DNA of 64,000 nucleotides from an uncultured Rhodospirillaceae bacterium (GTDB lineage Bacteria; Pseudomonadota; Alphaproteobacteria; Rhodospirillales; UBA2165): the NCBI GenBank assembly GCA_964639965.1, contig CAZXGI010000005.1:314-64313 (forward strand), in the 5' to 3' direction. The translations under genes and the position numbers were made by a program. Numbering within the stretch: position 1 is the first letter of the stretch; each line of letters opens with the position of its first letter. Below the pieces are notes generated by a model, which saw only the letters and a list, made by a program, of their open reading frames with translations, ran no database searches and was not told where the DNA came from. This document shows positions 5,389-58,416 of the stretch, piece after piece.

Positions 5389-5588
5389 CTATTTTCCCGA
5401 ATGTTAAAGTTTTTTTTGAAATTAAGGCGCTTAATATTGTTTTACTAGTAATATTTTTTAATAAAAAAACTTTGTTAGTGAATCTTTTAAATTGAAACCA
5501 TTATTAGTTCAAACTTCCACTACTCTTCAAAGATAATAAGTTAACTAAGACCAACATCACTCATCGTTCTCGCGCAGGCCTTAATATC

Positions 5589-5909
5589 CTACTCAGTACG
5601 GTATATGAGATGATAGCCAAAGACTGTTTCAACCACGTCGCTAATCGCTCCGACTTCTAGTTCAAATGCAGCTTGATCAAATTCTGGAACCATCGCGCCT
5701 CTACCGAAATTGCCCAAGTCACCTCCTTGTCTTGCTGAAGGGCAATCCGAATGTTCACCTGCGACTTGTTCGAAAGGGGTACCATCCTCAATATTAGCTT
5801 TCAGCGCACTAATTTGTTTCATGGCATCCTCAGCCGTGAGTTGAGTATTTGCTTGAGGGGCATCTGCGTGATTAATAAGTATGTGTGAAGCACGGATTTG
5901 ATCTGACAT
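5589..5909 (-). CDS. parvulin-type peptidyl-prolyl cis-trans isomerase (PpiC-like)
   Basis: 106 aa. ASHILI start of the rotamase domain, then SARQGGDLGNFGRGAMVPEFDQAAF and FGYHLI. Confidence 0.85.
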   Translation of the reverse strand: MSDQIRASHILINHADAPQANTQLTAEDAMKQISALKANIEDGTPFEQVAGEHSDCPSARQGGDLGNFGRGAMVPEFDQAAFELEVGAISDVVETVFGYHLIYRTE

Positions 5910-6637: not shown

Positions 6638-7795
6638 ATGAAGAAACTAATTATTGTGCTTTGCGTATCGCCAATTTTATTTTTTATTAGCAATAGAGAG
6701 GTGTTGGGTTTGCCTCCTTGTCCAGCACACATTAATCCTTCTCCTTCTCATTGGTCAGAGTGTTTTGGCACTTACACTTATGCAAATGGCAATAAATACG
6801 AAGGAGAATATCAGAATGGTAAACGAAATGGCCAGGGTACCTTCACATTCGCAGATGGGGAGAAATATGTTGGAGAATTTAAAGATGGTAATTATCACGG
6901 CAAAAGCATTTATACGTTCGCTAACGGTGACAAATATGTAGGACAATGGCAAGATGGTAAGTTTAATGGTCTTGGCACTTTTTTTTATTTAGCGGAGAAT
7001 GAGGTTAAAGGTGATAAGTATGTTGGCGAGTGGAAGGATGGTGAATTCTTTGGCCAAGGAAAATATTTTTATTTAGCTGCCAACGAGTTTAAAGGAGATG
7101 TTTATGTTGGTGAGATAAAAAATGGAAAGCCAAATGGACAGGGCATTTATACCTACAGCTCAAGGTCAAAGTTTGCTGGTGACTTATACAAAGGTGAGGT
7201 GGAGGATGGCAAACCCAATGGTCAGGGTATTTATACCTTTGCAAATGGGAAGAAATATGTTGGTGAATTTCGAAAAGGTAAGCAGACTGGACGTGGGGCA
7301 TATACGTTTTTTTCGCCATCACTATTTGCCGGAGATGTTTATGTTGGTGATGTTAAGGATGGAAAACCTAGTGGACAAGGGACGTATACCTGGGGTCCCT
7401 CTTCGGAATTTGTAGGTGATAGTTATACCGGAGAATGGAAGAATGGAAAAAAGAACGGACAAGGTATTTATACTTTTGCCGATGGAAGGATTCAGGAAGG
7501 AATTTGGGAAAATAACAGTTTCAAATATGCCCAAAAAACTAGGCGATCTAGGATTGTTCAGGAATCAATCGAGCAGTCAGCTGAAGTAAAGAAGGAAATA
7601 GAAGATCTCAAGAAATTACAGAAGAAAATGGCAGGATTAGAACGTTGGAATACACAAAACACTCAACGTATCAAAAATACAGAGCAGCAAAAAGAGCCTG
7701 TAGAAAATGAAAATACCAAGGTAGATCGTGATTCCCTTATATCTAAATTACAAGAGTGGTGGTCTTCTTTGTTTGGATCTAGCGATAAACCTTAG
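6638..7795 (+). CDS. secreted or anchored MORN-repeat protein with charged C-terminal tail
   Basis: 385 aa. N-terminal MKKLIIVLCVSPILFFIS hydrophobic segment, then 9-10 repeats of YxGExxxGKxNGQGxYTF. The C-terminal tail is Lys/Glu/Gln-rich and predicted helical. Confidence 0.8.
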   Translation: MKKLIIVLCVSPILFFISNREVLGLPPCPAHINPSPSHWSECFGTYTYANGNKYEGEYQNGKRNGQGTFTFADGEKYVGEFKDGNYHGKSIYTFANGDKYVGQWQDGKFNGLGTFFYLAENEVKGDKYVGEWKDGEFFGQGKYFYLAANEFKGDVYVGEIKNGKPNGQGIYTYSSRSKFAGDLYKGEVEDGKPNGQGIYTFANGKKYVGEFRKGKQTGRGAYTFFSPSLFAGDVYVGDVKDGKPSGQGTYTWGPSSEFVGDSYTGEWKNGKKNGQGIYTFADGRIQEGIWENNSFKYAQKTRRSRIVQESIEQSAEVKKEIEDLKKLQKKMAGLERWNTQNTQRIKNTEQQKEPVENENTKVDRDSLISKLQEWWSSLFGSSDKP

Positions 7796-7802
7796 GAGTT
7801 TT

Positions 7803-8654
7803 ATGAAAAAAGGTAAGTTCATATTTCTGGTAGTTTTATTCATTCTTATTTCGAGTGTTTCAACGAGTGAGCCCATTTCGTTTTCTAACTTAGAGGAACG
7901 AAATAATCTTTACTATAAAAAATCTTCCGATATACCATTTAGTGGACAAGTTAAAGGTATTAAAAATGGAAGAGTGTTTAACGGAAAAATTGTTGGTCTT
8001 TGGATAGCTTATTTGACGAATGGCAATTTGCGTTACAAAGCGAATTATAAAAATGGGAAACTTGATGGTCTATGGGAGTTTTATCACAAAAATGGTAGGC
8101 TGCATGAGGTAGGTAATTATAAGAATGGAAAAAAATATGGTGTTTGGTCCACTTATTTTAAAAATGGTCAATTAAGTTATAAGGCATCTTACAAAGAAGA
8201 CAGAGAGGACGGTCCTTTTAATTCTTATTCATCGGATGATGGCCGACTGCTATGGAAGGGTTTTTATAAGAATGGGAAAAGAGATGGGGTCTGGGAGTAT
8301 TACTACCAAAATGGACAGATAGAGATAAAGGATCATTATAAAGAAGGGAAAAAAGATGGTCCTTGGGAGTATTATTATCCGGGAGGGAAATTGCATTCGA
8401 AAGGTAGCTACTTAAATGGAAAAAAAGATGGAATTATGGAATGGTTTCACAGGAACGGTAAATTGAAAAGTATAGGAAGTTATAAAAAGGGGCGACGTGA
8501 AGGAGGGCTTTGGAAAACGTATAATATGAAAGGCCAGCTAAAAACTAAAGGCTACTATAAGAACGGAAAGAAAAATGGTCCTTGGGAGGTTTACGACGAG
8601 GACGGGCAGTTAGAACGACAAAGAAACTATATAAATGGTAAAGAAATTAAATAA
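7803..8654 (+). CDS. secreted MORN-variant (YwqK-type) repeat protein
   Basis: The ORF track starts at 7728, but the ATG at 7803 is preceded by AGGAG (7794-7798) and gives MKKGKFIFLVVLFILISSVSTSEP, a signal peptide. About 10 repeats of YKNGKKDGxWxxYYxNGxL follow. Confidence 0.8.
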   Translation: MKKGKFIFLVVLFILISSVSTSEPISFSNLEERNNLYYKKSSDIPFSGQVKGIKNGRVFNGKIVGLWIAYLTNGNLRYKANYKNGKLDGLWEFYHKNGRLHEVGNYKNGKKYGVWSTYFKNGQLSYKASYKEDREDGPFNSYSSDDGRLLWKGFYKNGKRDGVWEYYYQNGQIEIKDHYKEGKKDGPWEYYYPGGKLHSKGSYLNGKKDGIMEWFHRNGKLKSIGSYKKGRREGGLWKTYNMKGQLKTKGYYKNGKKNGPWEVYDEDGQLERQRNYINGKEIK

Positions 8655-8802
8655 ATTCAATTCTGATGCCAGCTGCTTGCCAGCGATATTTGGATGACCG
8701 TTAAAAAAATATAGAATAACTCATTGGTATTATTAAGATTATTTATTTCACTGCTGATTTAGAATATTGGAAATTATATAATATCCCGAATTTGCAGAGA
8801 TT

Positions 8803-11136
8803 TCAGGTGTCATTTTCTGTGGGTCTATGGCTGTCTGGTTTAGATGCTAATCGCAATACGAGTTCTTCTTCACGATCACGTAAAGCTAGGCGATAAGACT
8901 GTTCTTTACCTGTTTCGTAAGGTAAAGGCCATCTTTGATGGTCAATGCCGTAATATGCTGCAGCTTGCAGGGTAAAATGCGGATTTGTTAGATGAGGTCT
9001 TCCAATTGCTACTAGGTCCGCTCTTCCTGCTGCCAGTATTGTATTAGCTTGGTCCCAAGTTGTAATGTTGCCTGCAGTAATAGTTGGAATGTCTGCTTCT
9101 AACCGAACTTGTTCTGAGAATAAGACTTGGAACATACGCCCATAAATAGGTTTTGCATCTGGAGTTGTTTGTCCAGCTGAAACATTGATAATATCGCAAC
9201 CACGTGCCTTTAGAGCCTTGGCTATTTTGACAGCATCGTCTCCATTTATCCCGTCTTCACCGATCCAATCGGTTGCAGAGATTCTGACTGAAATAGGTTT
9301 TTCATCGGGCCACACCTTGCGGACAGCGTCAAGAATGCGCAGAGGAAACCGCATACGGTTATTCAGTGAACCTCCATATTTGTCTTTTCTATGGTTGCTG
9401 ATAGGCGTGACAAAACTTGACAGCAGATAACCGTGGGCCATATGTAGTTCGATCATGTCCGAACCTATTTGATTCGCCAATTTGGTTGCATATAAAAATT
9501 CAGATTCAACATCATCCATTTCACTTTCGGTCATTTCTAGAGGAATATTATTTTTAGCACTATATGGAATTGCTGAAGGTGCAATTAACTGCCAATTACC
9601 CTGTTTAAGGGGGAGATCCATCCCCTCCCATGCTACCCGCGTGGAACCCTTTCTCCCAGAGTGGCCAATTTGCATGCAAAATTTTGCATCTGAATTTTCA
9701 TGAATATAATTGATAATTTTAGCCCAGGCGTCCGAATGTTCCTCTTTATAGAGACCTGCACAGCCTGGTGTGATCCTGCCCGCTTCCGAGACACAAGTCA
9801 TTTCCGAAAAAATAATTCCCGCTCCACCCATCGCTAAACTTCCTAAGTGGACAAAATGGAAATCTCCGACCGTGCCTTCAATAGCTGAGTACATATCCAT
9901 AGGTGATACGACGATTCGATTGGAAATGGTCATTTCGCGGAGCTTAAAAGGTGTAAACATCGGTGGTGTACTTTTTGGAACAACAAATCCTTTCTCGCGC
10001 ATCTGATTTGAAAACCAATCTTCTATTTTTTCTATAAATTCGCTGTCGCGTAATCGAAGGTTTTCATGAGTTATTTGTTTTGATCGAGTTAACATTGAGT
10101 AGGCAGCTTGCAAAGGTTGTAAATCCCAATAACGGTTGGTGTTTTCGGTCCATGCAACACTAACATCTGCTGCATGTTGCGTGATTTCAACCTCAGTCCG
10201 CCTTATTACTTCAAATTTTTTTAGAGCTGTCTGGACATTATTTTCTGCAGAAAGGGATTTGTGTAAGGCAATAGCATCTTCCATTGCTAATTTGGTTCCC
10301 GACCCGATGGAGTAGTGTGCTGTGTGAAGTGCGTCTCCAATAAGAACAATGTTATTGAAACTCCAGTGGTCGCACCTTATCGTCGGAAAAGATCTCCAGA
10401 TTGATTTGTTTGGTATCAAGTTATGACCGTCGAGTTTATCTCCCCATAAGTCTTCCATATACTTGATTAAACGTTTTTCATTTAGATCTTCGACGTCAGG
10501 TTGGGCATTTTTCCATGTCGGTTCAGGGGCTTCGATAATCCAAGTTGCATAATTTTCATTAAATTGATAAGCACCTAATATCCAGATGCCGGCCTCATTT
10601 TCGGTGAAGTCAAATGTAAACGCCTGATATGGTTTTGTGCAGCCGAGCCAAATGAACTTGTTTCGGCGCCATTCAATATTTGGAATAAACTGGCCTTCAT
10701 TTAATTTTCGTATTTTGCTGTTTATGCCGTCAGCCCCGACGATTAAGTCAGCGTCTTGGAACTCCTCTAATTCTTTCACTTTGTAATTAAAATGGAGGTT
10801 AATGTCCAATTCTTGGCAACGTTCTTGCAGGATAAGCAATAATTCTCTGCGGCCACACCCACAAAATCCGTGTCCTTTAGTCCGGATTGTTTTTCCTTTA
10901 AAATTAAAATCGATTTCGTCCCAGTATGCGAACTCGTTAATAATTTTATGATATGTTTTTTCGTCTTGGGATAAAAAATTACCTAATGTTTCGTCAGAGA
11001 AAACGACGCCAAATCCAAAAATATCATCAAATTGGTTTTGTTCATAAACATCAATCGAGTATTCAGGATTTGTCTTTTTCATAAGTATAGAAAAATAGAG
11101 GCCAGCAGGACCAGCACCGACAACCGCAATTTTCAT
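8803..11136 (-). CDS. bifunctional FAD-dependent aromatic-ring monooxygenase fused to Old-Yellow-Enzyme-type NAD(P)H:flavin oxidoreductase (2-aminobenzoyl-CoA monooxygenase/reductase or salicylyl-CoA 5-hydroxylase-like)
   Basis: 777 aa. The N-terminus MKIAVVGAGPAGLYFS carries the FAD dinucleotide fold, with GADGINSKIR and LIGDALHTAHYSIGSGTKLAMEDA as hydroxylase motifs. The C-terminal half starts FTPFKLREMTISNRIVVSPM and contains HMAHGYLLSSF, typical of OYE TIM barrels. Confidence 0.8.
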   Translation of the reverse strand: MKIAVVGAGPAGLYFSILMKKTNPEYSIDVYEQNQFDDIFGFGVVFSDETLGNFLSQDEKTYHKIINEFAYWDEIDFNFKGKTIRTKGHGFCGCGRRELLLILQERCQELDINLHFNYKVKELEEFQDADLIVGADGINSKIRKLNEGQFIPNIEWRRNKFIWLGCTKPYQAFTFDFTENEAGIWILGAYQFNENYATWIIEAPEPTWKNAQPDVEDLNEKRLIKYMEDLWGDKLDGHNLIPNKSIWRSFPTIRCDHWSFNNIVLIGDALHTAHYSIGSGTKLAMEDAIALHKSLSAENNVQTALKKFEVIRRTEVEITQHAADVSVAWTENTNRYWDLQPLQAAYSMLTRSKQITHENLRLRDSEFIEKIEDWFSNQMREKGFVVPKSTPPMFTPFKLREMTISNRIVVSPMDMYSAIEGTVGDFHFVHLGSLAMGGAGIIFSEMTCVSEAGRITPGCAGLYKEEHSDAWAKIINYIHENSDAKFCMQIGHSGRKGSTRVAWEGMDLPLKQGNWQLIAPSAIPYSAKNNIPLEMTESEMDDVESEFLYATKLANQIGSDMIELHMAHGYLLSSFVTPISNHRKDKYGGSLNNRMRFPLRILDAVRKVWPDEKPISVRISATDWIGEDGINGDDAVKIAKALKARGCDIINVSAGQTTPDAKPIYGRMFQVLFSEQVRLEADIPTITAGNITTWDQANTILAAGRADLVAIGRPHLTNPHFTLQAAAYYGIDHQRWPLPYETGKEQSYRLALRDREEELVLRLASKPDSHRPTENDT

Positions 11137-11293
11137 GGGTTTACTCCTGGTATCAAGGGATTTATCTTATAACCAAGATATTCACATATTTATAATCAAA
11201 AATACAAACCTCGCTAGACTTTTATGGTGCTATAAATTTTTTTACAATCAAAATAATCAATATTCAAAAAATATTGCCTAAAGGGACGTCATA

Positions 11294-12592
11294 ATGACCG
11301 AGTTAATGCGCTTTCCAAGTTCCAGAGAAGAAATTCTATTAATCCAGAGGGAGCGCAAAAGGTTAGCGTTTGAAAGAGCTAAACAAGCTCCTTGGTATAG
11401 GAATAAGTTATCGGGTATAGATGTAAATAAATTAGATGATCCCGAGGTCTGGAGCCAAGTCCCGATACTGACTAAGGACATTCTTCGAAGGTTTGATCAT
11501 GATGAGTTTATTGAAAATTTTAATATTGCTCCTACGACAGATATCGCTGAATATTGGCGTTCCGGTGGTACCACGGGGAAGCCAGTTTTTTATCCTAGGA
11601 CGTTTGAGGATGTAAATTACGGACTAGAAAGTTGGGCCAGGACTTTTCCAGCTATTGGCATTGATTCACAAGATTTATGCCATATTTCATTTCCGTTGGG
11701 TATCCATCCAGCCGGGCAAATTTGGGCACGCAGTGCTCATCAGAAGAACGTGGGTATGAATTGGGTGGGTGCTGGAAATTCAGTGCCATCGGAGGCGCAA
11801 ATTGATTTAATACTTACCCTGAAACCCACGGTATTAATTTCAATGTCCAGCTTTGCGCTTCATCTTGCTAATATTGCCGACAATAATGGCATAGACCTTT
11901 CCAAAAGTTCGGTTCGAATTGTCATTTGCTCAGCAGAGACACTTTCGGACGCAAAAAGAGAAAAACTGGGACACCGCTGGGGGGCTGAAGTTTTTGACGT
12001 ATTTGGTATGAGTGAAGCGGGCCTGATGGGATGCGAAAGCAGTGAACATGATGGAATTCATATATGGTCTGACATGTATTATTGTGAAGTGATAGATGAG
12101 AAGTCCAGTAAAGTCCTGAATGAAGGAGAGACAGGAGCATTTTGTGTAACGCCGCTTTTTACTAATAATGCAACACCATTTTTGCGGTGGAACTCAGGAG
12201 ATATCGTTCAGATGATTGGTCGTGGTAAGAGTAAAGGTCGGATCGGCGACCTGTTCCCTATGATCCGGCATGCTGCACGTACAACCGGTTTTTTCAAGAT
12301 ACGTGGTGTTAATCTTAACCATACAGAGTTTGAGGATTTTATGTTTGGGAATGCGGAAATCAATGACTTTCAAGCAATTTTGGAGACCGGAGATGATGAT
12401 TTGGAATTAATCAGGGTTAAAATAGAGGTTAAAAGAGGTCTTGATGAAGAAAAAATTTCCAAACAGGTTGGATCAGAGATAAAAAAGGTATTTGAAGTAT
12501 CTCCAATAATTGATTTACAGAAGCCCGGCGAGCTTGCCAAACTCTTTGAAACCAGTATTAAAGCTCCTAGGTTTGTTGATGAAAGGAGATGA
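11294..12592 (+). CDS. PaaK-like (phenylacetate-CoA ligase family) adenylate-forming aryl/acyl-CoA ligase
   Basis: 432 aa. YWRSGGTTGKPVFYP is the P-loop-like AMP motif. FDVFGMSEAG is also present. The short length and C-terminal ACT-like tail are typical of PaaK/F390-synthetase relatives. Confidence 0.8.
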   Translation: MTELMRFPSSREEILLIQRERKRLAFERAKQAPWYRNKLSGIDVNKLDDPEVWSQVPILTKDILRRFDHDEFIENFNIAPTTDIAEYWRSGGTTGKPVFYPRTFEDVNYGLESWARTFPAIGIDSQDLCHISFPLGIHPAGQIWARSAHQKNVGMNWVGAGNSVPSEAQIDLILTLKPTVLISMSSFALHLANIADNNGIDLSKSSVRIVICSAETLSDAKREKLGHRWGAEVFDVFGMSEAGLMGCESSEHDGIHIWSDMYYCEVIDEKSSKVLNEGETGAFCVTPLFTNNATPFLRWNSGDIVQMIGRGKSKGRIGDLFPMIRHAARTTGFFKIRGVNLNHTEFEDFMFGNAEINDFQAILETGDDDLELIRVKIEVKRGLDEEKISKQVGSEIKKVFEVSPIIDLQKPGELAKLFETSIKAPRFVDERR

Positions 12593-12613
12593 TTCTAAGA
12601 ATTAACCACCAAA

Positions 12614-12829
12614 ATGCAGCATCAGAATTGTAAAATCTTGGAATTTGATGATTTGAAAAACCGAAGTGGAAGGCAGTTAATTTGTGAAGTTTGCCATACT
12701 AACTTTATGTGTGACAGCAATAGTGAGGTTGGTTGTTGGTGTATGACGATAGAACAAAAGGTAATTGATGAAAATTTAAAAGACTGTATCTGTGAGAATT
12801 GTCTCTCTAAAGCCGTTAATTGTAGATGA
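12614..12829 (+). CDS. cysteine-rich CWC-family small protein
   Basis: 71 aa. Pattern CEVC...C...GCWC...CICENC, with 9 Cys including the CWC signature. Confidence 0.6.
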   Translation: MQHQNCKILEFDDLKNRSGRQLICEVCHTNFMCDSNSEVGCWCMTIEQKVIDENLKDCICENCLSKAVNCR

Positions 12830-13295
12830 GTTAATAAATAATGAGAAATTCGAAAATAAATGGGTCAAGATATTGATAGATGAGTGGTTATATCAGGTAC
12901 GCATAAAGGTAAGCGAAGAGCTTTCCAATGTATTGAGGGCAGGAAAGCTAGAAGGTACATCTAAAGAAATATACAGGATAGCAAGCAAGTATGGTACTTT
13001 TCCCGTTTGTACTTACGACGCATTCTGTGACTATTGTGCAGAAGCAGAATCAAATGTGTTCGAAGAATATCCTCTATATGATTGGACGAAGAAAGTCATA
13101 GAAGATCCAGAAAAACGAAAAAAACATATTAAGTCTTTCGCCTTCTATACTGAAGATTCGCAGGTATATAAGGAAAAATTGGCAAGATCACTGCATAATA
13201 GCCTGTTACCCCTCCATGAAAAAAGTTTAATAGAGGACTTAACTCTTATAGACAGCAATCCAAAAAATAACCCCCAGCCCCCGAGAAAATTTTAG
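12792..13295 (+). CDS. hypothetical protein (no family recognised; start uncertain)
   Basis: 167-codon ORF with no in-frame ATG anywhere. The only candidate starts are GTG 12792, which overlaps the upstream gene by 38 nt, and TTG 12873. The charged, helical-looking sequence looks like real coding sequence. Confidence 0.45.
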   Translation: MRIVSLKPLIVDELINNEKFENKWVKILIDEWLYQVRIKVSEELSNVLRAGKLEGTSKEIYRIASKYGTFPVCTYDAFCDYCAEAESNVFEEYPLYDWTKKVIEDPEKRKKHIKSFAFYTEDSQVYKEKLARSLHNSLLPLHEKSLIEDLTLIDSNPKNNPQPPRKF

Positions 13296-13412
13296 CTTCG
13301 TTAATGTAGAAAAAATTCGAAATACTTGATTTAATTTTAATATTGCTAATCTAATTTAATTCTAGGGGATCCTTAGTGAAAAATTATTGCAGTTTATTAA
13401 TCGAAAAAAAAA

Positions 13413-14039
13413 TTAGCTAAGCGCTAACCAAATACCAACACCTATCATTAGGAGACCAGCAACACGATTTATTAATCGAGTATTGTTTTGTTTTTTCAGC
13501 ATCATTGCTAGTGCCTGTCCTCCAATTGCATATATCATCAAAGAAATAAATTCTATTATTAATATAATTATCAAAAGAGCTGACATTTGAGGTAAAAGGG
13601 TGACTTCGTAATTAATAAAAGCAGGTACTATCGCGATAAAGAATGCCCACCCTTTAGGATTGGCGACAGCTGTTATGAACCCTTGAACAGATAATTTGAT
13701 AAACTTAATTTCAAATGAGTGAGTTCCATCAAAATTTAATGCCAACGCCCCTCTGGAATTTATCATTTGATAACCTATAAAAACTAAATATATTCCTCCG
13801 CAATATTTGAATAGAAGAAGGGCGGCTGGGTATGACGAAATGATTGCTCCACCACCAATGACTGCTGTACCCGCTACAACCAAAACACCAATAAGTTCAC
13901 CTGCCATCATTTTCATTGTATTTCTGATTCCGATGGTGATGCCCATTGTTAAGGCGAGCGTCATACAGAGGCCAGGAGTTATAGATATGGCAAAAAAAAT
14001 GGGAATAAAATAGTATAAGAGCGAAAAGTCTATGGGCAT
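13413..14039 (-). CDS. LysE/RhtB-family amino-acid efflux permease
   Basis: 208 aa with about 6 TM segments. The N-terminus ...FAISITPGLCMTLAL... and the overall length fit the LysE translocator family. Confidence 0.75.
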   Translation of the reverse strand: MPIDFSLLYYFIPIFFAISITPGLCMTLALTMGITIGIRNTMKMMAGELIGVLVVAGTAVIGGGAIISSYPAALLLFKYCGGIYLVFIGYQMINSRGALALNFDGTHSFEIKFIKLSVQGFITAVANPKGWAFFIAIVPAFINYEVTLLPQMSALLIIILIIEFISLMIYAIGGQALAMMLKKQNNTRLINRVAGLLMIGVGIWLALS

Positions 14040-14330: not shown

Positions 14331-15881
14331 TCATGCTGCTATTTCTGGAAAATTGATTTTGGCTGCATCAATAATAGCATTTGATGAAACTAATGTTGCT
14401 GCTCGAGCGAGATCTGAAGCAAGATAGCGATCATTTTGGATAGTTGCAATGTCAACACGTAAGCGTGCTAATACTGAATTTAATGGATTACTTGTTTTTA
14501 ATGGCGCCCTGAATTCAATACCCTGTGCCCCACAAATTAGTTCAACACCCAGAATATTATTTAGATTCTTTGTCATTCTCAGTAGGCGGCGTGCACCGTA
14601 AGCCGCCATTGATACATGGTCTTCTTGGTTTGCGCTGGTTGGGGTGCTATCTGTGACACACGGGTTGGCAAGGTGTTTGTTCTCGCTCATTAGAGCAGCA
14701 GCGGTAACTTCTGCCATCATCAATCCTGAATTCAAACCTGGTTCTGGTGTTAGAAATGGTGGAAGATTATGACTCAAAGTAGGATCCACCATTAATGCTA
14801 TACGGCGTTGAGAAATCGCACCAATTTCAGCGATGGCAAGTGCGATCATATCGGCAGCAAAGCCAACTGGTTCAGCATGAAAATTACCTCCAGAAACAAT
14901 GCGGTTGGATTTTGTTAATACAAGGGGATTATCAGTTGCTGCATTGGCTTCAATTTTCAAGGTAGTGGAAGCTTGACGCAGTACGTCCATAGCTGCACCT
15001 GTCACTTGTGGCTGGCAGCGAATGCAATAAGGATCCTGAACTCTAGTGTCTCCTTCTATATGGCTATCACGTATTTCAGATCCAGTTAGTAGAGCTCTAA
15101 TGCTACTAGCTGCTTCACACTGCCCACGATGACCACGTAAGGCGTGAATGTCTGGTTGTGTTGGTGCCGTAGACCCCATGATAGCATCGGTCGACATTGC
15201 TGATGTTATTAATGAGTTTTGCGCAGCATGCCAGGCTTCAAAAAGACCAGCTAGCGCAAAAGTAGTTGAAAACTGCGTACCGTTTATTAGAGCCAAGCCT
15301 TCCTTTGGCCCTAGAGTGATTGGGGATAATCCAGCTTTGGCCAAAGCATCAGCACTATGATAAATCTTACCATCGTATTCTGATTTCCCTTCTCCAATCA
15401 TGGCAGCAGTCATATGGGCCAATGGCGCTAAATCTCCCGAAGCACCAACTGATCCCTGTGCTGGAATTACGGGCATTACCCCTTTTTCCAACATCTGTTG
15501 GAGCAATTCTACGAGTTCCCAACGTACACCAGAAGCACCGCGTCCAAATGATATAAGTTTAAGCGTCATCATTAATCGAACAATACTATTTGGGACCGGG
15601 TCGCCTACCCCACAGCAATGGCTCAAGATTAAATTTTTCTGCAAGGTTTTTGAATCTGACGGATCAATTTTGATACTGGCTAGTTTTCCAAACCCAGTGT
15701 TGACACCATAAACTGGAACCTCACTATTGGCAGCAATATCAATCTGTTTGCAGGACTCTTCAATAGCCTTACGGCAATCAGGACTTAATCTTGTGGTATT
15801 TTCATTCCAGTAAATGTCACTCAACTGATTAAGTGAAACCTGCCCCGGATACAATGTCAATTCACCCAAATTTTCCTCCAA
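14331..15881 (-). CDS. hutH: histidine ammonia-lyase
   Basis: 516 aa. MIO-forming [15 protein letters not shown] (Ala-Ser-Gly), [11 protein letters not shown] (Ser-His selectivity pair typical of HAL, not PAL/TAL), [12 protein letters not shown]. The start is non-ATG: TTG at 15881, or TTG at 15869 after GGAGG. Confidence 0.9.
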
Positions 15882-16454: not shown

Positions 16455-17210
16455 ATGCTAGGTAGCGTAAATAAGGAAAAAAACTTGATTGGTAAAAAAA
16501 TTATATCAATTCGTGATAAGTGGCACACAAAGAATCACCCTTTATTTAAGGAATTGGCAAAAGGCAAACTGAAACTTAAAATCCTCGGCATTCATCAGGC
16601 GATGCATGCTAAATTTGTCGTTTTGGCGCTTGAGGCTTTTGGTCTTCTTTACAATAAAGGAGACTCGCAGATAAAAAAAATGTGCGTGGAAAACCTAGCT
16701 GAAGAAGAGGGAATAGTTGCACAAATTGCAGTTGGCGAAGAACCTCACGAACACATGCATATGATACACCAATTTTGTCTCGCTGCTGGTTTAAGTCAGA
16801 AAGAAATTGATACAACAGAAATGCTCCCAAGCTGGTGGGCTCGGACACTCTATTATAGATATATAGCAGATGTTGAACCAGTAGGGGTGGCCCTAGCTGC
16901 GTTGTTCACACAAGAGGGTCAACAACCTCAACTTAATAACGAAATTACGATACCCGCTCTTACTGCACATTATGGTTTTAATCGTGATGACCCAGCTATT
17001 GAGTTTTTTGTTGCACACGAGCTTGCAGATCAGGAACATTCAGAGAGACAGTTAGCGTTAGCTGTTGAAAATATTCACACCGAAGAAGAAGCCTCTCAAG
17101 CGCTAATTTGTGCCGAAAGAATCTGCCAATTACGCTGGGCCTCTGCATCAGAGATATATAATTTACATCATTTGGGTGAAGCAATACTTGCGCCCCCAGA
17201 ATTAACTTAA
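16455..17210 (+). CDS. heme-oxygenase-like diiron (iron-containing redox enzyme; PqqC/TenA/CADD-fold) protein
   Basis: 251 aa. N-terminal ...HPLFKELAKGKL..., ENLAEEEG...PHEHMHMIHQF (aa 80-107), FTQEGQ (E154), and FFVAHELADQEH = H-x3-D-x2-H (aa 188-195, nt 17016-17039). Confidence 0.65.
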   Translation: MLGSVNKEKNLIGKKIISIRDKWHTKNHPLFKELAKGKLKLKILGIHQAMHAKFVVLALEAFGLLYNKGDSQIKKMCVENLAEEEGIVAQIAVGEEPHEHMHMIHQFCLAAGLSQKEIDTTEMLPSWWARTLYYRYIADVEPVGVALAALFTQEGQQPQLNNEITIPALTAHYGFNRDDPAIEFFVAHELADQEHSERQLALAVENIHTEEEASQALICAERICQLRWASASEIYNLHHLGEAILAPPELT

Positions 17211-27793: not shown

Positions 27794-28282
27794 ATGTCGT
27801 CTTTCAATCTCAACGTCAATGGAATAACACATCAGATTGACGCAGAGCTCGATACACCGCTTATTTTCATTCTCCGAAATCATCTCGGCTTGTTTGGAGT
27901 AAAATTAGGGTGTGGACAGGAGCAGTGCGGGGCGTGTGTTGTTTTGGTGGATGGCGAGGCAGTGAATTCATGTGTTCGCGCAGCTTCTGAATTCTGTGAA
28001 AATAAGATTGTTACCATTGAAGGTCTGTCTAAAGATGGGGAGTTGAATTCAGTACAGAGAGTTTTTATAGCAGAAGGAGCGGCTCAATGTGGTTATTGCA
28101 CCGCTGGGATCGTGGTTGCCACGACAGCTTTATTGAATCAAAACCCTAAGCCCAGCAATAAAGAGATCCAACTAGCTTTAAATGATCATTTGTGCCGGTG
28201 TGGTTCTCACCGTCGGATTCTTAACGCTATCGACCGATTAATTTGTGAAGGAGGAAAAGATGGCCAAACATCCAAGTATTGA
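27794..28282 (+). CDS. [2Fe-2S]-binding small subunit of a molybdenum hydroxylase (IorA / aldehyde-oxidase small-subunit type)
   Basis: 162 aa. Plant-type cluster GCGQEQCGACVVLVDGEAVNSC, with the second cluster in QCGYCTAG and CRCGSH. Confidence 0.85.
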   Translation: MSSFNLNVNGITHQIDAELDTPLIFILRNHLGLFGVKLGCGQEQCGACVVLVDGEAVNSCVRAASEFCENKIVTIEGLSKDGELNSVQRVFIAEGAAQCGYCTAGIVVATTALLNQNPKPSNKEIQLALNDHLCRCGSHRRILNAIDRLICEGGKDGQTSKY

Positions 28283-30416
28283 TTTGCAACCTAATGTTGA
28301 TCAATGGATTGAATTGGTTAGCGATGGTCGCATACTCCTCCATACTGGGAAAGTTGATATTGGCCAACGCATTTCGACAGCTCTAGCTCTCATTGCAGCA
28401 GAAGAGCTTAATGTAGATTATGATCGCATTGATGTTAAGCGAACTGAAACGGGTATTGATCCTAATGAAGGGTTTACAGCTGGTAGCATGTCCATGCAAC
28501 ATTCGGGTAAGGCAATACGACTAGCTAGTGCAACAGCACGAGAATTTATGCTAAAAATGGCAGCTAAAAGATTGGATGTCGATATCCAATATTTGGATAT
28601 AGATGATGGCCTGATACAGTCCCGAAGTTCAAATAAATCAATTACATACTGGGAATTGATGTCAGAAAAGAAATTTAACGTTCCCGTTGATGAGGGAATA
28701 AAAATTAAAACCCCCGACCAACATAAGTTTGTTGGAACCCGTGTTATGGCAAAAGACATGGTAAGTATCATGACAGGAGAAATGGCTTATATTCATGATA
28801 TGGTTTTAGACGATATGCTGCACGCACGTTTGGTTAGGCCACCTCATTATCTGGCTGAGCTAGAGAGTTTGGATGACCAGTTAATTTCACGTCTAATTGA
28901 AAGTAATATTCGAATGATACGTGATGGTAGTTTTTTAGCTGTTGCCGCCCAGGATGAGTATGCTGCGGTCAAGGCAGCCAAGCGAGTGGCCGCTTCAGCA
29001 AAATGGGATTTAAAAGATGGTTTGCCAACAAAAGAAATATTTGATGCGTTAACATCAAATGAACGGATTAGTTTGCCTGTTGCTCCCGGAGGGGTGCCTA
29101 TTGATGAGCCTGTAATGCCAGTCGGAGATTCATTTGGTGAATCTAGTGTCTCTCTATCGGCTCGTTTTGAAAAGCCTTACCACATGCATGGGTCAATCGG
29201 GCCTTCTGCAGGATGCGCACTTTTTGAGAAAAATAAGTTAACAGTTTGGACGCATAACCAGGGTGTTTATCCGCTTCGCGATGCAATGGCTGAGGCACTT
29301 GGGATGGAGCTCGATGATATACATATTGTGTTTGTTCCGGGATCAGGATGTTATGGACATAATGGTGCAGATGATGCCGCTTATGAAGCTGGTCTAATAG
29401 CCCGAGCTATTCCGGGTAAACCGATTTTATTAAAATGGACAAGAGATGATGAACATGCGTGGGAACCTTATGGGTCGGCAATGGTCTGCAAAATGCAGGC
29501 TAGTTTGGGAAAAGATGGTAAAGTTGTTGCTTGGTCCCATGAAAGTTATAGTGATACTCATATGGGGCGTCCCGCACCAGGTCGTTTGGGGTCTCCTGCT
29601 GAAAAATTATTGTCAACTCATTTTCAGGAAAACTCTTTGGATTGGCCAATTATGCCACCGACGATGGGACCCCATGTAGGTATCCATAGGAACTTGGAAC
29701 CATTATATAATTTTCCAAATCCTCGATTAGTAAAAAATTTAGTACGTGATTTACCGTTGAGGGTATCAGCTCTGCGTACTCTTGGAGCTTTTGCCAATGT
29801 ATCAGCTTTAGAATCGTTTATGGATGAACTTGCTGAAGCGGGAAATATTTCGCCCATTCAATTTCGTTTGAATCATCTCGATGATGAAAAAGCCATAGAT
29901 GTTATCGAGACACTTGGCAAGAGGATGTCGACTGAGAAAGCAGGTATTCCGGAGGGGTTTGGAGCTGGTATGGCTTTCGCCCAGTATAAAAATTCTGCGG
30001 CGTATTGTGCCGTAGGAATTGAAGTGGAAGTTAATGATGCCGCAGAAGTATTATTGCATCGCGCATGGGTTGTTGCTGATGCCGGAGAGGTTGTTGATCC
30101 CGATGGCTTAACGGCTCAACTGGAGGGAGGAGTAATTCAGGCCGCTAGTTGGTCTCTGATGGAGCAAGTTATGTTTGATAGTGGGGGAATTACAAGCAGG
30201 GATTGGGATAGTTACCCTATTCTCAGTTTTAATAATATTCCCAAAATTGAAACCACACTAATGGATTGCCCGGGCGAACCGTTTCTCGGCGTGGGAGAGG
30301 CAAGCTCTGGACCTACAGGTGGTGCTATTATTAATGCTATATATAATACAATAGGTCTTCGTCTTCGCCGAATGCCATTTAACCCGGATGCAATTCGTTC
30401 AGCCGCAATGAATTGA
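28260..30416 (+). CDS. molybdopterin-binding large subunit of a two-subunit molybdenum hydroxylase (IorB-like)
   Basis: ORF 28245-30416. The ATG at 28260 follows GAAGGAGG and overlaps the small-subunit gene by 23 nt. About 718 aa with GSGCYGHNGADDAA and GVGEASSGPTGGAIINAI motifs typical of the xanthine-dehydrogenase/aldehyde-oxidase Mo-binding family. No signal peptide is seen. Confidence 0.8.
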   Translation: MAKHPSIDLQPNVDQWIELVSDGRILLHTGKVDIGQRISTALALIAAEELNVDYDRIDVKRTETGIDPNEGFTAGSMSMQHSGKAIRLASATAREFMLKMAAKRLDVDIQYLDIDDGLIQSRSSNKSITYWELMSEKKFNVPVDEGIKIKTPDQHKFVGTRVMAKDMVSIMTGEMAYIHDMVLDDMLHARLVRPPHYLAELESLDDQLISRLIESNIRMIRDGSFLAVAAQDEYAAVKAAKRVAASAKWDLKDGLPTKEIFDALTSNERISLPVAPGGVPIDEPVMPVGDSFGESSVSLSARFEKPYHMHGSIGPSAGCALFEKNKLTVWTHNQGVYPLRDAMAEALGMELDDIHIVFVPGSGCYGHNGADDAAYEAGLIARAIPGKPILLKWTRDDEHAWEPYGSAMVCKMQASLGKDGKVVAWSHESYSDTHMGRPAPGRLGSPAEKLLSTHFQENSLDWPIMPPTMGPHVGIHRNLEPLYNFPNPRLVKNLVRDLPLRVSALRTLGAFANVSALESFMDELAEAGNISPIQFRLNHLDDEKAIDVIETLGKRMSTEKAGIPEGFGAGMAFAQYKNSAAYCAVGIEVEVNDAAEVLLHRAWVVADAGEVVDPDGLTAQLEGGVIQAASWSLMEQVMFDSGGITSRDWDSYPILSFNNIPKIETTLMDCPGEPFLGVGEASSGPTGGAIINAIYNTIGLRLRRMPFNPDAIRSAAMN

Positions 30417-32345: not shown

Positions 32346-32906
32346 ATGCGTTTAAATCTTGGTTGCGGGGATGCTCGTATGGATGGATATCTGAATGTTG
32401 ATAAAGAAGCTGGATGTCAACCTGATAAAATTCAGGATTTAGAAGTTTTTCCATGGGATTTCGACGACAATAGTGTTGATCAAATTTTATTGAGTCATGT
32501 TCTTGAGCATTTAGGGCAGACCACAGAAATTTATCTTTCAATTTTGCAAGAACTTTATCGAATTAGTAAGCCGGGCGCACAAATTGATATAAGAGTACCA
32601 CATCCCCGACATGATGATTTTGTAACTGACCCCACACATGTCCGACCGATTTTGCCTGGACAATTTCATATGTATTCAAAAAGAAATAATAAAGAATGGC
32701 GCGAACAGGGAATCGCGAATACACCTTTGGCAGATTATCTTGATATTGATTTTGAGGTTGAGGATGTGACGTGGGTGCCCGATAAGAAGTGGCTAAGCCG
32801 TTTACAGGGAGGCGTAATAACTTCAGACGAACTTGCGGAAAAAGCTGAGCATGAATTTAATATTATCAAAGAGGTTCAAATTCAGTTAAAGGTAGTCAAG
32901 GAGTAA
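32346..32906 (+). CDS. small class I SAM-dependent methyltransferase (Methyltransf_11-like)
   Basis: 186 aa. Starts MRLNLGCGDARMDGYLNVD and contains SVDQILLSHVLEHL. Confidence 0.65.
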   Translation: MRLNLGCGDARMDGYLNVDKEAGCQPDKIQDLEVFPWDFDDNSVDQILLSHVLEHLGQTTEIYLSILQELYRISKPGAQIDIRVPHPRHDDFVTDPTHVRPILPGQFHMYSKRNNKEWREQGIANTPLADYLDIDFEVEDVTWVPDKKWLSRLQGGVITSDELAEKAEHEFNIIKEVQIQLKVVKE

Positions 32907-35425: not shown

Positions 35426-36490
35426 ATGTTTTTTAAATGTTCTCACCGTGCGCCAGATGATGATCAAAAAAGTGGAAAAATTATCTCTAACGGATCTTCA
35501 TCTAAAGTTGTGGATATCCATTGTCATAGGGAATGTGCTCCAGCAGCTGAAATGATGAAGGCTGAGGCAGAGCGTGTTGGTTTTGGTGCCCTTTCCTTCG
35601 GCAGCAAACTTACAAAAGAAGTTAACCAACAACAACTGATTGATATTAAGCCCAAAATGGAGTCTTTGGATGAACGGATTGCCGATATGGATAGAATGGG
35701 TGTTGATGTTCAAGCAGTTTCAATATCCCCTTATCAATATTATTATTGGTCTGAACCGGAAGTTGGATGTGATGTATCTAAACTAATCAACAATGATCTT
35801 GCTGATGCTATTAGCAAAAAACCAGATCGCTTAGTTGGTTTGGGTACAGTGCCGTTACAAAATACTGAAATGGCAATCGAGGAGCTCAAACGTTGTGTTA
35901 ATGAACTTGGCTTTAGAGGTATCGAAATTAATAGCCAAATATCTGGTGAAGAAATATCATCTCCTCGTTTAGAACCTTTTTGGGCTATGGTTGAAGAGTT
36001 GGATATTGTCGTCTTTATTCATACGGCAGGGTTTAGCCATCCAGATCGTTTGAAGGACCATTATTTTATCAATTTGATTGGGCATCCAATAGAAGCAACT
36101 TTGGCCATTTCCCGACTTATTTTTGACGGTATTATGGAGAATCATCCAGGTCTCAAAATTGTTGTGGCACATGGGGGAGGATTTCTGCCAGCCTATTCTG
36201 GCCGTATGGACCATGCTTACCGTGCTCGTAAAGATGTACGCGAAGGGCTTCCTGAATTACCGACTGATTATCTTAAGCGCTTTTATTTCGATACTATGGT
36301 GTTTGAACCCGATCAATTAAAATATTTAATTGAAAAGTTTGGTCCAGATCATATCCTTCTTGGAACAGATTATCCTTATGATATGGGTGAACATGATCCT
36401 CTTGCCTTAATAAATAAGGTTGAAGGATTAAATGAGTTTGATTGTTCATCGATTTGTGGTGGTAATGCGCAGAAGCTCTTGAAGATCTAA
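35426..36490 (+). CDS. amidohydrolase-2 (ACMSD/LigW-type metal-dependent decarboxylase/hydratase family)
   Basis: 354 aa. VVDIHCH (HxH), VFIHTAG, VVAHGGGFLPAYSGRMDH and LLGTDYPYDMGE are the ligand pattern of PF04909-type enzymes. AAGGAG lies upstream of the ATG. Confidence 0.75.
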   Translation: MFFKCSHRAPDDDQKSGKIISNGSSSKVVDIHCHRECAPAAEMMKAEAERVGFGALSFGSKLTKEVNQQQLIDIKPKMESLDERIADMDRMGVDVQAVSISPYQYYYWSEPEVGCDVSKLINNDLADAISKKPDRLVGLGTVPLQNTEMAIEELKRCVNELGFRGIEINSQISGEEISSPRLEPFWAMVEELDIVVFIHTAGFSHPDRLKDHYFINLIGHPIEATLAISRLIFDGIMENHPGLKIVVAHGGGFLPAYSGRMDHAYRARKDVREGLPELPTDYLKRFYFDTMVFEPDQLKYLIEKFGPDHILLGTDYPYDMGEHDPLALINKVEGLNEFDCSSICGGNAQKLLKI

Positions 36491-56909: not shown

Positions 56910-56916
56910 TAATTAC

Positions 56917-58337: not shown

Positions 58338-58364
58338 CTGAACACAGCCCCTGTTTCAGGACGA

Positions 58365-58393
58365 AGAGGCGTGAGATATAGTCTCACGCCTCT
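58365..58393 (-). terminator. perfect 11-bp stem-loop between the binding-protein gene and the ATPase/permease genes (attenuator or mRNA-stabilising hairpin)
   Basis: AGAGGCGTGAG (58365-58375), loop ATATAGT, then CTCACGCCTCT (58383-58393). It lies 24 nt downstream of the SBP stop. Confidence 0.5.
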
Positions 58394-58416
58394 TTAACTA
58401 AAAATGGAAATTGAAA

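Follow-up and report, generated by a model that had tools for sequence, protein, structure and literature searches.

A PaaK-type CoA ligase and a fused two-flavin enzyme, encoded divergently in the genome of an uncultured Rhodospirillaceae bacterium, form a widespread conserved module of uncultured marine and soil Alphaproteobacteria that is not peculiar to this genome. We consider it fairly probable that the pair is a self-contained two-enzyme module by which an aromatic acid is attacked aerobically in a CoA-dependent manner: the ligase probably attaches coenzyme A to the acid, and the thioester so formed is then probably hydroxylated and reduced by the fused enzyme. A literature search on the ligase-hydroxylase pair found no paper, and we know of no report pairing any non-phenylacetate PaaK-like ligase with an ACMR-type flavoprotein. 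As the pairing is uncharacterised but recurrent in many Alphaproteobacteria, it represents a variation on a known degradation strategy and not a new kind of system.

Organisation of the locus

The pair and its parts lie as follows in the window, by which we mean the whole 64-kb stretch of DNA that was analysed (basis of each assignment in brackets):

8803 to 11136, minus strand: fused flavoprotein of ACMR/SdgC architecture (aryl-CoA monooxygenase/reductase type), 777 aa, ATG start (ORF, NF006101, Pfam)
10069 to 11136, minus strand: its N-terminal FAD aromatic-hydroxylase domain, VioD-like, residues ~1-356 (3c4a, NF053547, motifs)
8914 to 9960, minus strand: its C-terminal Old-Yellow-Enzyme (OYE) FMN barrel, XenA/YqjM-type, residues ~393-741 (5ocs, XenA)
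11137 to 11293, no strand: divergent intergenic region of 157 bp, without a regulator gene (sequence)
11294 to 12592, plus strand: PaaK-type (short ANL) acyl/aryl-CoA ligase, 432 aa, ATG start (Pfam, NCBIfam, 2y27)

An earlier sequence-only reading had described this pair, and a 777-aa fused ORF and a PaaK-type ligase were indeed found on opposite strands 157 bp apart. Shine-Dalgarno-like AGGAG and AAGGGA can be read upstream of the two ATGs, and the very strong homology signals mark both ORFs as genuine genes and not chance ORFs. The surrounding genes encode MORN-repeat proteins, a LysE exporter and histidine ammonia-lyase, together with ORFs of 71 aa (Cys-rich, CWC) and 167 aa; as that reading had also claimed, no thioesterase, hydratase or dioxygenase is among them. 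A gentisate dioxygenase gene was found neither adjoining the pair nor among the scanned window ORFs, which comprised most but not all of them. The scanned ORFs likewise contained no paa-type genes, which were also missing from related loci, and none of the genes that accompany abm-type enzymes, which were also missing beside the pair.

The fused flavoprotein belongs to the ACMR/SdgC type

Pfam searches with the 777-aa protein returned FAD_binding_3 (E 9e-11) and Oxidored_FMN (residues 393-725, E 1e-63). NCBIfam NF006101 (PRK08255; salicylyl-CoA 5-hydroxylase/oxidoreductase), a model named for the activity of SdgC from Streptomyces sp. WA46, matched it end to end with 1064.6 bits (protein residues 1-757, model positions 1-762 of 768). 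As this score narrowly missed the curated equivalog cut-off of 1078, the match places the protein in the architecture family and not as a salicylyl-CoA 5-hydroxylase equivalog, and as the same name is also carried by proteins of clearly anthranilate-type clusters, it does not settle the substrate. Like SdgC, the window enzyme would use a thioester supplied by a dedicated ligase. The N-terminal part, a class-A FAD monooxygenase domain, matched the VioD structure 3c4a (residues 1-354, E 3.5e-47) and the VioD model NF053547 (residues 2-356), and the OYE part matched PDB 5ocs (E 1e-84) and XenA (E 1e-82).

The motifs quoted in the earlier reading are all in place (VGAGPAG at residues 6-12, GADG at 134-137, GDALH at 267-271), and an alignment revealed that GxGxxG, (G/A)ADG and GDALH are conserved across the hydroxylase clade and in abm-type proteins. 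Also conserved in the clade is ELHMAHGYL, the His-x-x-His-Gly-Tyr substrate/proton-donor motif, which aligns with that of XenA, and the position of XenA Cys25 is occupied by Asp or Asn. Judged by alignment, the cofactor and catalytic motifs are intact in both proteins of the pair.

A 2,4-dienoyl-CoA reductase (FadH)-like fusion was rejected because of the domain order: here the FAD monooxygenase precedes the OYE barrel, whereas FadH-like fusions start with an OYE barrel, followed by an Fe-S site and a C-terminal FAD/NAD(P)H domain. Models for FadH/OYE-type enzymes, BaiCD and bilirubin reductase matched the OYE part only, with 67-180 bits versus cut-offs of 628-825. The full-length NF006101 match, the domain order and the tree position described below thus uphold the original assignment to the ACMR/SdgC type and not to the 2,4-dienoyl-CoA reductases.

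Relationship to abm-type enzymes

The window enzyme shares with ACMR/AbmA of Azoarcus evansii and other abm-type enzymes the N-terminal FAD hydroxylase, the C-terminal OYE barrel, a length of ~770-800 aa, all cofactor and catalytic motifs, and a CoA ligase partner; abm-type clusters are those of Azoarcus evansii and Arthrobacter sp. Rue61a pAL1 and homologous ones in Thalassospira, Ruegeria, Sulfitobacter and Ralstonia. A neighbour-joining (NJ) tree was built with proteins from Arthrobacter Rue61a pAL1, Ruegeria, Thalassospira, Sulfitobacter, Ralstonia, Rhodococcus and Streptantibioticus, SdgC not being included. The ligase-linked hydroxylases, which are 54-81% identical to the window protein, were monophyletic in 100 of 100 bootstraps, and their clade was sister to the proteobacterial abm-type enzymes; the abm-type enzymes as a whole are 45-51% identical to the window protein. 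The window protein groups with proteins from aryl-CoA clusters that have been validated or assigned by context. The tree includes the Arthrobacter Rue61a pAL1 protein, and the ligase neighbouring that hydroxylase has measured anthranilate-CoA ligase activity (PMC3534580).

The surroundings of the two types of enzyme differ. Operons of the abm type contain a long ANL ligase, enoyl-CoA hydratase, acyl-CoA dehydrogenase, SDR, thioesterase and RidA, and often kynA/kynU, whereas the window pair is without the SDR, enoyl-CoA hydratase, acyl-CoA dehydrogenase, thioesterase, RidA and kynurenine-pathway genes of these clusters. The contrast with long ANL ligases drawn in the earlier reading also stood, as the abm-type clusters inspected carry an AMP-binding ligase of ~540-550 aa of the benzoate-CoA-ligase type versus the 432-aa PaaK-type ligase of the window; AbmG is a benzoate-CoA-ligase-like protein of 65 kDa (PMC8388817).

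The ligase represents a conserved clade distant from PaaK

Pfam identified AMP-binding and AMP-binding_C_2 domains in the 432-aa ligase, a short ANL architecture. Its best NCBIfam matches were the PaaK models TIGR02155 (143.5 bits versus 646.3) and NF041878 (172 versus 700), the scores being about a quarter of the cut-offs. Residues 9-410 aligned globally, N-terminal region included, with the PaaK1 structure 2y27 (E 3.6e-34), and the PaaK-like relatives 6hdw and 6siw were detectable at E 6e-19 and 2.5e-15, respectively. Identity to true PaaK or to any characterised enzyme was 27-28% at most. A query with the ligase recovered 2683 homologues, the best 120 listed being at least 63% identical, and homology places the window ligase in a clade that is tightly conserved but uncharacterised.

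The P-loop SGGTTGKP, FGMSE and the C-terminal Lys423 are invariant in an alignment of this clade, and these elements, like the short ANL architecture, are shared with B. cenocepacia PaaK1/PaaK2 (PDB 2Y27/2Y4N/2Y4O). An invariant His138 stands in place of PaaK1 Phe141, and the inserted stretch Gln142-x-Trp144-x-Arg146 does not vary within the clade either. The hydrophobic aryl pocket of PaaK1, which reportedly consists of Tyr136, Phe141, Ala147, Ala214, Ile236 and Pro245, corresponds in the window ligase to F133, H138, A145, A214, V236 and M245, plus an extra Q142. Given an identity of 27-28% and a pocket that seems to differ from that of PaaK1, we rate an aromatic substrate of the ligase as no more than likely. 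PaaK-like ligases acting on ring carboxylates are documented (2-naphthoate and 2-phenanthroate ligases, NatL2/AjiA1), and these together with 2-hydroxyisobutyryl-CoA synthetase demonstrate that activation of ring carboxylates and polar acids is within reach of the PaaK scaffold (PMC8388817); the ligase type alone thus has precedent, although all of these enzymes are farther from the window ligase than PaaK.

The two genes are conserved together

The best 80 of 240 species-level genomes with the ligase, whose ligases are 59-83% identical to that of the window, were surveyed for a hydroxylase within 10 kb. The fused enzyme was present within this distance in 65 of the 80 loci and divergent from the ligase in 62 of those 65. 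Among the 73 informative loci, the pair was present in 65 (89%) and the ligase occurred without a hydroxylase within 10 kb in eight, which bears out the proposed co-conservation of the two genes. In 52 cases the gap between the genes matches either an empty spacer or a single MarR/winged-helix gene, and more examples of the pair were found on metagenome contigs. Pairing is kept down to ~59% ligase identity, in lineages of both marine and soil origin whose other neighbouring genes are unrelated. Pairwise identities of the ligases and of the hydroxylases were correlated (r = 0.89, reached by 0 of 2000 permutations), and co-inheritance of the two genes is tight. No thioesterase, hydratase, dehydrogenase or ring-cleavage gene was co-conserved with the pair in the ~65 related loci, and Liv-type ABC transporter genes flank it in several.

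Proposed function and alternatives

From its family, the PaaK-type ligase would adenylate an aromatic carboxylate and then transfer it to CoA. As the fused enzyme is homologous to 2-aminobenzoyl-CoA monooxygenase/reductase and to salicylyl-CoA 5-hydroxylase, its FAD domain would then hydroxylate the ring of the aryl-CoA using NAD(P)H and O2, the most likely position being ortho or para relative to an amino or hydroxy group that activates the ring. Indirect support for such a thioester substrate comes from the conserved CoA-ligase-type gene next door. The OYE/FMN domain could act on the hydroxylated product in the manner of ACMR and reduce its non-aromatic tautomer, or else it may be idle, in which case an aromatic hydroxy-aryl-CoA would leave, the product that SdgC reportedly releases. 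Later steps, either thioester hydrolysis or beta-oxidation-like ring processing, would be encoded away from the pair. The most likely candidate substrates are amino- or hydroxybenzoates, namely anthranilate, salicylate, or 4-hydroxy- or 4-aminobenzoate, possibly halogenated in the marine lineage. A more far-reaching version, which we regard as rather unlikely, is that the pair constitutes a so far undescribed aerobic route, dependent on CoA, for some aromatic acid that is neither anthranilate nor salicylate; in marine Rhodospirillaceae this acid may be a halogenated hydroxy- or aminobenzoate. In that lineage the ligase is in translational coupling with a mini reductive-dehalogenase-like gene, and a full NpRdhA homologue is encoded in the present genome. 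In this version, dearomatisation or hydroxylation of the ring would require no enzymes beyond these two, and the product would pass to general metabolism.

The pair could instead belong to the anthranilate (2-aminobenzoyl-CoA) pathway as already described, a non-orthologous PaaK-type ligase having taken the place of the long ANL ligase AbmG; its anthranilate would come from the breakdown of tryptophan/kynurenine, and the downstream abm genes would be located elsewhere. The sister position of the window clade to proteobacterial abm-type hydroxylases at ~50% identity would fit, as would the integrity of both flavin domains, which are needed for ACMR chemistry, and the JGI automatic annotation of homologues as 'anthraniloyl-CoA monooxygenase'. 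We nevertheless consider it unlikely, as SDR, enoyl-CoA hydratase, acyl-CoA dehydrogenase, RidA, thioesterase, kynA and kynU are not co-conserved with the pair over ~65 loci, none of the abm-type accompanying genes adjoins it in the window, and a clade set cleanly apart (100/100 bootstraps, at most 51% identity) is typical of a change in specificity. Very unlikely, in our view, is an arylacetate substrate in place of a benzoate, in which classical PaaK chemistry on 2-hydroxy- or 2-aminophenylacetate or indole-3-acetate would lead to a hydroxylated arylacetyl-CoA, for example homogentisyl-CoA. To our knowledge, every characterised member of the fused family acts on benzoyl-type thioesters; Amidohydro_2 genes, presumably encoding decarboxylase-type enzymes of hydroxybenzoates judging by their family, adjoin members of the hydroxylase clade; and the exchange of the reported aryl-pocket Phe of PaaK1 for an invariant His, with polar residues added, also speaks against arylacetates, even though among characterised enzymes the ligase is closest to phenylacetate-CoA ligases and the closest solved relative of the monooxygenase domain, VioD, hydroxylates an indole ring.

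It is also conceivable that ligase and hydroxylase merely share a divergent control region and are functionally independent, the hydroxylase receiving its thioester from another ligase and the PaaK-type ligase serving a different process, perhaps together with the Trypsin_2/PDZ gene found after it in at least 13 loci, whether or not the hydroxylase is present. The eight ligases lacking a nearby hydroxylase are scattered through the ligase tree, and loci of Xanthobacteraceae have a long ANL ligase as well, situated between the two genes. Two members of the hydroxylase clade are without a PaaK-like ligase: the first adjoins an AMP-binding ligase of 618 aa and a gene of the enoyl-CoA hydratase/hydrolase type (ECH), the second an ECH-type gene only. 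Against this stand the adjacency of the two genes in 89% of informative loci, with ligases as little as ~59% identical and unrelated neighbours, the congruence of the ligase and hydroxylase distance matrices, and the agreement of ligase followed by aryl-CoA hydroxylase with the reaction order of characterised homologous pathways, and we give independence only a slight chance of being correct.

The divergent spacer

Next to the ligase, relatives usually have a regulator of the MarR, winged-helix or AraC type, the MarR and AraC assignments being confirmed by Pfam; regulator genes of the MarR or winged-helix type are situated between ligase and hydroxylase, as is often the case for MarR, and are co-directional with the ligase. 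The regulator gene has been lost from the locus in this genome. In its spacer, TTTAYAATCAAAA occurs twice as a direct repeat (at 11189-11201 and 11241-11253), and TATCTT-N6-AAGATA (11163-11180) forms an imperfect palindrome. As a promoter-consensus scan of the spacer gave no enrichment over shuffled sequences, a regulatory role of these elements is one that we only infer. Elements like TATCTT-N6/7-AAGGTA occur in the spacers of four related loci (L003, L007, L009 and L011).

A divergent gene pair on ordinary chromosome

The pair comprises a gene for a 777-aa fused flavoprotein, hereafter the hydroxylase, and a gene for a 432-aa PaaK-type ligase. Our ORF analysis found both at the coordinates proposed in the sequence-only reading, 157 bp apart, and the flavin-binding motifs named there are present in the hydroxylase as VGAGPAG (residues 6-12), GADG (134-137) and GDALH (267-271). 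A Shine-Dalgarno-like sequence precedes each ATG (hydroxylase, AGGAG; ligase, AAGGGA), and both gene starts are sound because the alignments of homologues begin at residue 1.

The gene pair and nearby features
8803..11136, minus: fused flavoprotein (hydroxylase) gene, ORF of 777 aa, ATG start
11294..12592, plus: ligase gene, ORF of 432 aa, ATG start
12614-12829, plus: Cys_rich_CWC ORF of 71 aa (PF14375, 29 bits), starting 22 bp past the ligase stop
12792-13295, plus: ORF of 167 aa without a family match, overlapping the 71-aa ORF
14331-15881, minus: bona fide histidine ammonia-lyase (699 bits vs 524)
16455-17210, plus: CADD/Haem_oxygenas_2-family protein (TIGR04305, 68.5 bits, under the cut-off)

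It had also been claimed that no ring-processing genes are adjacent, and indeed a thioesterase, a hydratase, a dehydrogenase and a ring-cleavage gene are all absent beside the pair, which is adjoined by two MORN-repeat genes, the 71-aa and 167-aa ORFs, a LysE exporter and the histidine ammonia-lyase. The two small ORFs are common only to same-species contigs and the closest relative, L006 (one of the species-level ligase loci fetched for comparison), and probably lie outside the module core. The histidine ammonia-lyase and the CADD-like gene were considered as module parts and rejected, as they are not kept beside the pair in other loci. The consecutive MORN-repeat genes (6638-7795 and 7728-8654, plus strand; PF02493, E = 4e-47; PF07661, E = 3e-36) are convergent with the end of the hydroxylase gene. 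The region is ordinary chromosome, with genes for IMP dehydrogenase, GMP synthase, RsmB, RecQ, monomeric isocitrate dehydrogenase, CobS/CobT, shikimate kinase, an XerC/D-type recombinase and a SecA fragment; scanning the window for tRNAs and Rfam families returned no matches.

The hydroxylase belongs to a discrete clade

Pfam identifies FAD_binding_3 and Oxidored_FMN (residues 393-725, E = 1e-63) domains in the hydroxylase, and the NCBIfam model NF006101, "bifunctional salicylyl-CoA 5-hydroxylase/oxidoreductase", covers residues 1-757 with 1064.6 bits, just below its equivalog cut-off of 1078. There is no solved structure for any fused homologue; the N-terminal half resembles VioD (3c4a, E = 3.5e-47) and the C-terminal half XenA/YqjM-type Old Yellow Enzymes (OYEs; 5ocs, XenA, E about 1e-84). 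The OYE His-x-x-His-Gly-Tyr motif is intact (ELHMAHGYL), and the position of XenA Cys25 is Asp or Asn in the window hydroxylase clade. As judged from sequence, the fold assignment is unambiguous. The protein had been read as akin to the 2-aminobenzoyl-CoA monooxygenase/reductase (ACMR, AbmA) and salicylyl-CoA 5-hydroxylase (SdgC) rather than to 2,4-dienoyl-CoA reductases, and domain order and HMM scores exclude the latter: FadH/OYE-type, BaiCD and bilirubin-reductase models fit the OYE part only, with scores far under their cut-offs, and FadH has its domains in the opposite order.

Among PLSDB plasmids and chromids, the top hydroxylase matches are just 45-51% identical, and their surroundings differ and are richer in genes. 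The order in Thalassospira, Sulfitobacter and Ruegeria pomeroyi is hydroxylase, SDR, MarR, enoyl-CoA hydratase, acyl-CoA dehydrogenase and an AMP-binding ligase of ~540 aa, with RidA, a thioesterase, and kynA or kynU after or around these clusters in some records; Ralstonia shares this order with the SDR unlisted, in a record that is incompletely annotated. For Rhodococcus and Arthrobacter sp. Rue61a pAL1 (NC_009453) the neighbours include a long ligase, a thioesterase, a cupin, an FAH-family hydrolase and RidA, joined in Rhodococcus by kynA, and anthranilate-CoA ligase activity has been measured for the pAL1 ligase (PMC3534580).

In a neighbour-joining (NJ) tree of 63 sequences (770 columns), with comparators from Arthrobacter Rue61a pAL1, Ruegeria, Thalassospira, Sulfitobacter, Ralstonia, Rhodococcus and Streptantibioticus, all ligase-linked hydroxylases formed one clade in 100/100 bootstraps, sister to the proteobacterial proteins from such anthranilate (abm-type) clusters, with the actinobacterial ones more basal. 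Three extra clade members, from long metagenome contigs, were placed in this tree: one is again divergent from a PaaK-like ligase, the second adjoins a 618-aa AMP-binding ligase, an enoyl-CoA hydratase/hydrolase-type (ECH) gene and two Amidohydro_2 genes, and the third is adjoined only by an ECH-type gene. The pairing is thus strong but not obligate.

The ligase diverges from true PaaKs

The ligase contains AMP-binding and AMP-binding_C_2 domains (Pfam), and its top curated matches, to PaaK models, score 143-172 bits where the cut-offs are 646-700. Residues 9-410 align to PaaK1 (2y27, E = 3.6e-34), and identity to true PaaKs is 27-28%; PLSDB plasmids hold no orthologue, their top matches being true PaaKs at 28% identity. 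Invariant in the ligase clade are the P-loop SGGTTGKP, the FGMSE motif and the C-terminal Lys423. Phe141 of PaaK1, which we take to be an aryl-pocket residue, aligns with a His138 that is invariant in the clade, as is the adjacent Gln142-x-Trp144-x-Arg146 stretch; together these residues point to an acyl pocket more polar than that of PaaK. The PaaK-like clade is known to include 2-naphthoate, 2-phenanthroate and 2-hydroxyisobutyrate ligases as well as NatL2/AjiA1, Thauera has a 48-kDa 4-hydroxybenzoate/4-aminobenzoate ligase, and AbmG, the long ANL ligase of the anthranilate clusters, is a 65-kDa enzyme of the benzoate-CoA-ligase type (PMC8388817).

Ligase and hydroxylase are inherited together

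Searching with the ligase returned 2683 homologues, the best 120 of which are at least 63% identical, and many of the ligase-bearing contigs apparently recur among the hydroxylase matches. Querying a single representative genome for each of 185,579 GTDB species with the ligase alignment yielded 240 confirmed relatives, and the best 80 of these 240 loci were compared across 10-kb flanks of the ligase. Almost all are MAGs, from marine Rhodospirillaceae and other Alphaproteobacteria, soil Xanthobacteraceae and Hyphomicrobiales, and a few Burkholderiales. The comparison revealed by tblastn a gene 54-81% identical to the window hydroxylase within 10 kb of the ligase in 65 of the 80 loci, upstream and divergent in 62, as in the window. 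With seven loci too short to judge, the co-conservation anticipated from the single sequence is upheld in 65/73 informative loci (89%).

The gap between the genes is under about 300 bp and gene-free in 24 loci. A middle class of 28 loci comprises 26 with gaps of about 560-770 bp and two of about 310-320 bp; any gene called in the larger of these encodes a MarR or winged-helix regulator and runs in the ligase direction. Ten loci have gaps of 2.5-3.1 kb, which in Xanthobacteraceae hold a GST, a winged-helix regulator and a long ANL ligase. All-against-all ORF clustering of the fetched loci found no further widely shared gene, the next commonest neighbours, in at most 16 loci each, being ABC-transporter components and MarR-type (15), winged-helix (14) and Trypsin_2+PDZ (13) genes. 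Pairwise identities of ligase and hydroxylase correlate with r = 0.89 over 47 loci (0/2000 permutations as high), which shows long co-inheritance and is not proof of interaction, as vertical descent alone would suffice.

Ligase and hydroxylase might instead be independent neighbours, a reading favoured by eight loci that have the ligase and no hydroxylase despite 10 kb on each side, and by the Trypsin_2/PDZ gene found 3' of the ligase in 13 or more loci. We consider this improbable, given 89% adjacency amid otherwise unrelated neighbourhoods. Ligases without an adjacent hydroxylase are scattered across the NJ ligase tree, so uncoupling occurred several times.

Several locus variants were observed. 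The Trypsin_2+PDZ gene (~340 aa, cytoplasmic-looking) lies 3' of the ligase with or without the hydroxylase (L001, at 11343-12416; L002, L022-L024, L027, L033, L035, L037, L042, L044, L045, L056, L095). In L064, L082 and L084, one with 10 kb on both sides and two on shorter contigs, the fused hydroxylase was not found near the ligase and a stand-alone 484-aa OYE-family gene (Oxidored_FMN, E = 1e-35; 844-2298 in L084) takes its place, divergent to the ligase; in L080 a stand-alone OYE-family gene adjoins the fused enzyme. A long ANL ligase (553 aa) lies directly upstream of the PaaK-like ligase in a soil lineage of Xanthobacteraceae and related MAGs (L050, L051, L053, L067, L074, L080, L081), with the order hydroxylase, GST, winged-helix regulator, long ANL ligase, PaaK-like ligase in L050, L053, L067 and L080. 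Two ligase types in one cluster recall the two-protein activation by SdgA/SdgB reported for Streptomyces.

Proposed function and significance

From the chemistry of the two families, the ligase would form the CoA thioester of an aromatic acid, and the FAD domain would use NAD(P)H and O2 to hydroxylate its ring. Reduction of the non-aromatic tautomer by the OYE domain may follow, as in ACMR, or an aromatic hydroxy-aryl-CoA may be released, as in SdgC, and further processing would be encoded outside the locus. The most economical guess at the substrate is an amino- or hydroxy-substituted benzoate. A plain anthranilate pathway with a displaced ligase is less likely, being weakened by the complete absence of the abm accessory genes and by the clean separation of the hydroxylase clade; we think it quite unlikely that the substrate is an arylacetate.

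To our knowledge, CoA-dependent ("hybrid") aerobic aromatic pathways serve only a few substrates, namely benzoate, phenylacetate, anthranilate and salicylate. The superfamilies of both proteins are known, and a ligase feeding an aryl-CoA flavin hydroxylase/reductase is also the logic of the known CoA routes for anthranilate and salicylate. What is new is the discrete hydroxylase clade, its dedicated and tightly conserved PaaK-type partner ligase, and a two- or three-gene module without co-localised downstream genes; a full-text literature search found no description of the ligase–hydroxylase pair. Automatic annotation calls the proteins "phenylacetate-CoA ligase" and "anthraniloyl-CoA monooxygenase" or "salicylyl-CoA 5-hydroxylase", names that probably misstate what the organisms bearing the pair consume. 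Identifying the substrate would correct these annotations and could reveal a dissolved aromatic acid that these bacteria take from seawater and soil. For the ACMR route the downstream chemistry is still incomplete, and GapMind leaves the route out for lack of knowledge (PMC9007349).

The divergent spacer and regulation

The spacer contains an imperfect palindrome, TATCTT-N6-AAGATA (11163-11180), with look-alikes of the form TATCTT-N6/7-AAGGTA seen by visual comparison in the spacers of L003, L007, L009 and L011, and a direct repeat, TTTAYAATCAAAA, that occurs twice (11189-11201 and 11241-11253) at 52-nt spacing. Both could be candidate operator or -10 elements. A promoter consensus scan of 8500-13500 gave 13 promoter-like sites against 14.0 expected, hence no enrichment, and a terminator scan of the same interval found none convincing after either gene. 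In tblastn of the window with one representative per type, MarR-type, winged-helix and AraC-type genes were unmatched, as were GST, long ANL ligase, HAD and Trypsin/PDZ genes. The window lineage lacks the regulator, whereas the closest relative, L006 (83% ligase and 81% hydroxylase identity), retains it as a MarR gene at 5403-5861, and an AraC-type gene adjoins the ligase in another lineage. The regulators in relatives, along with Liv-type transporters beside several loci, are consistent with a catabolic or detoxifying unit that responds to its substrate.

A dehalogenase lead and other aromatic-type genes

In six close marine Rhodospirillaceae relatives (L003, L009, L011, L013, L014, L015), a 330-aa Fe-S protein resembling a "mini" reductive dehalogenase (RDH) or QueG is encoded 3' of the ligase. 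It matches the catalytic half of NpRdhA (4RAS, E = 3.7e-27), a catabolic, cytoplasmic reductive dehalogenase, and scores 105 bits with TIGR02486, under the cut-off. The window has no RDH-like gene directly after the ligase, and tblastn with the relatives' gene matches only a distant 735-aa ORF, which scores 181.4 bits with TIGR02486, above the cut-off of 160.35.

RDH-like genes and their neighbours
11302-12294 in L003: 330-aa Fe-S protein gene, starting 3 bp past the ligase stop
32346-32906: 186-aa ORF without a family match, flanking the NpRdhA homologue
33069-35276, plus: full-length NpRdhA homologue, 735 aa (4RAS, E = 1.8e-197, residues 3-704)
35426-36490: Amidohydro_2 gene, flanking the NpRdhA homologue

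The NpRdhA homologue and its flanking genes could form a small organohalide/hydroxybenzoate unit, some 20 kb away from the pair. With RDH-like genes near the ligase in relatives and this homologue in the window, halogenated aromatic acids are worth considering as substrates.

The window also encodes, at 27794-30416 (plus strand), an adjacent [2Fe-2S] subunit and 723-aa molybdopterin-binding subunit of the xanthine-dehydrogenase/aldehyde-oxidase family; none of the scanned genes beside them was identified as an FAD subunit, and the arrangement looks like the isoquinoline/aldehyde oxidoreductase type. Elsewhere, pirin and a Liv-type ABC transporter with a binding protein and two permeases are encoded next to a flavin-dependent oxygenase component that is HpaB-2-like (687 bits; cut-off 885).

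The HpaB-2-like region
55007-59721, minus: Liv-type transporter
59849-61453, minus: HpaB-2-like oxygenase
61713-62717, minus: pirin

This region is possibly another aromatic-acid uptake and hydroxylation unit.
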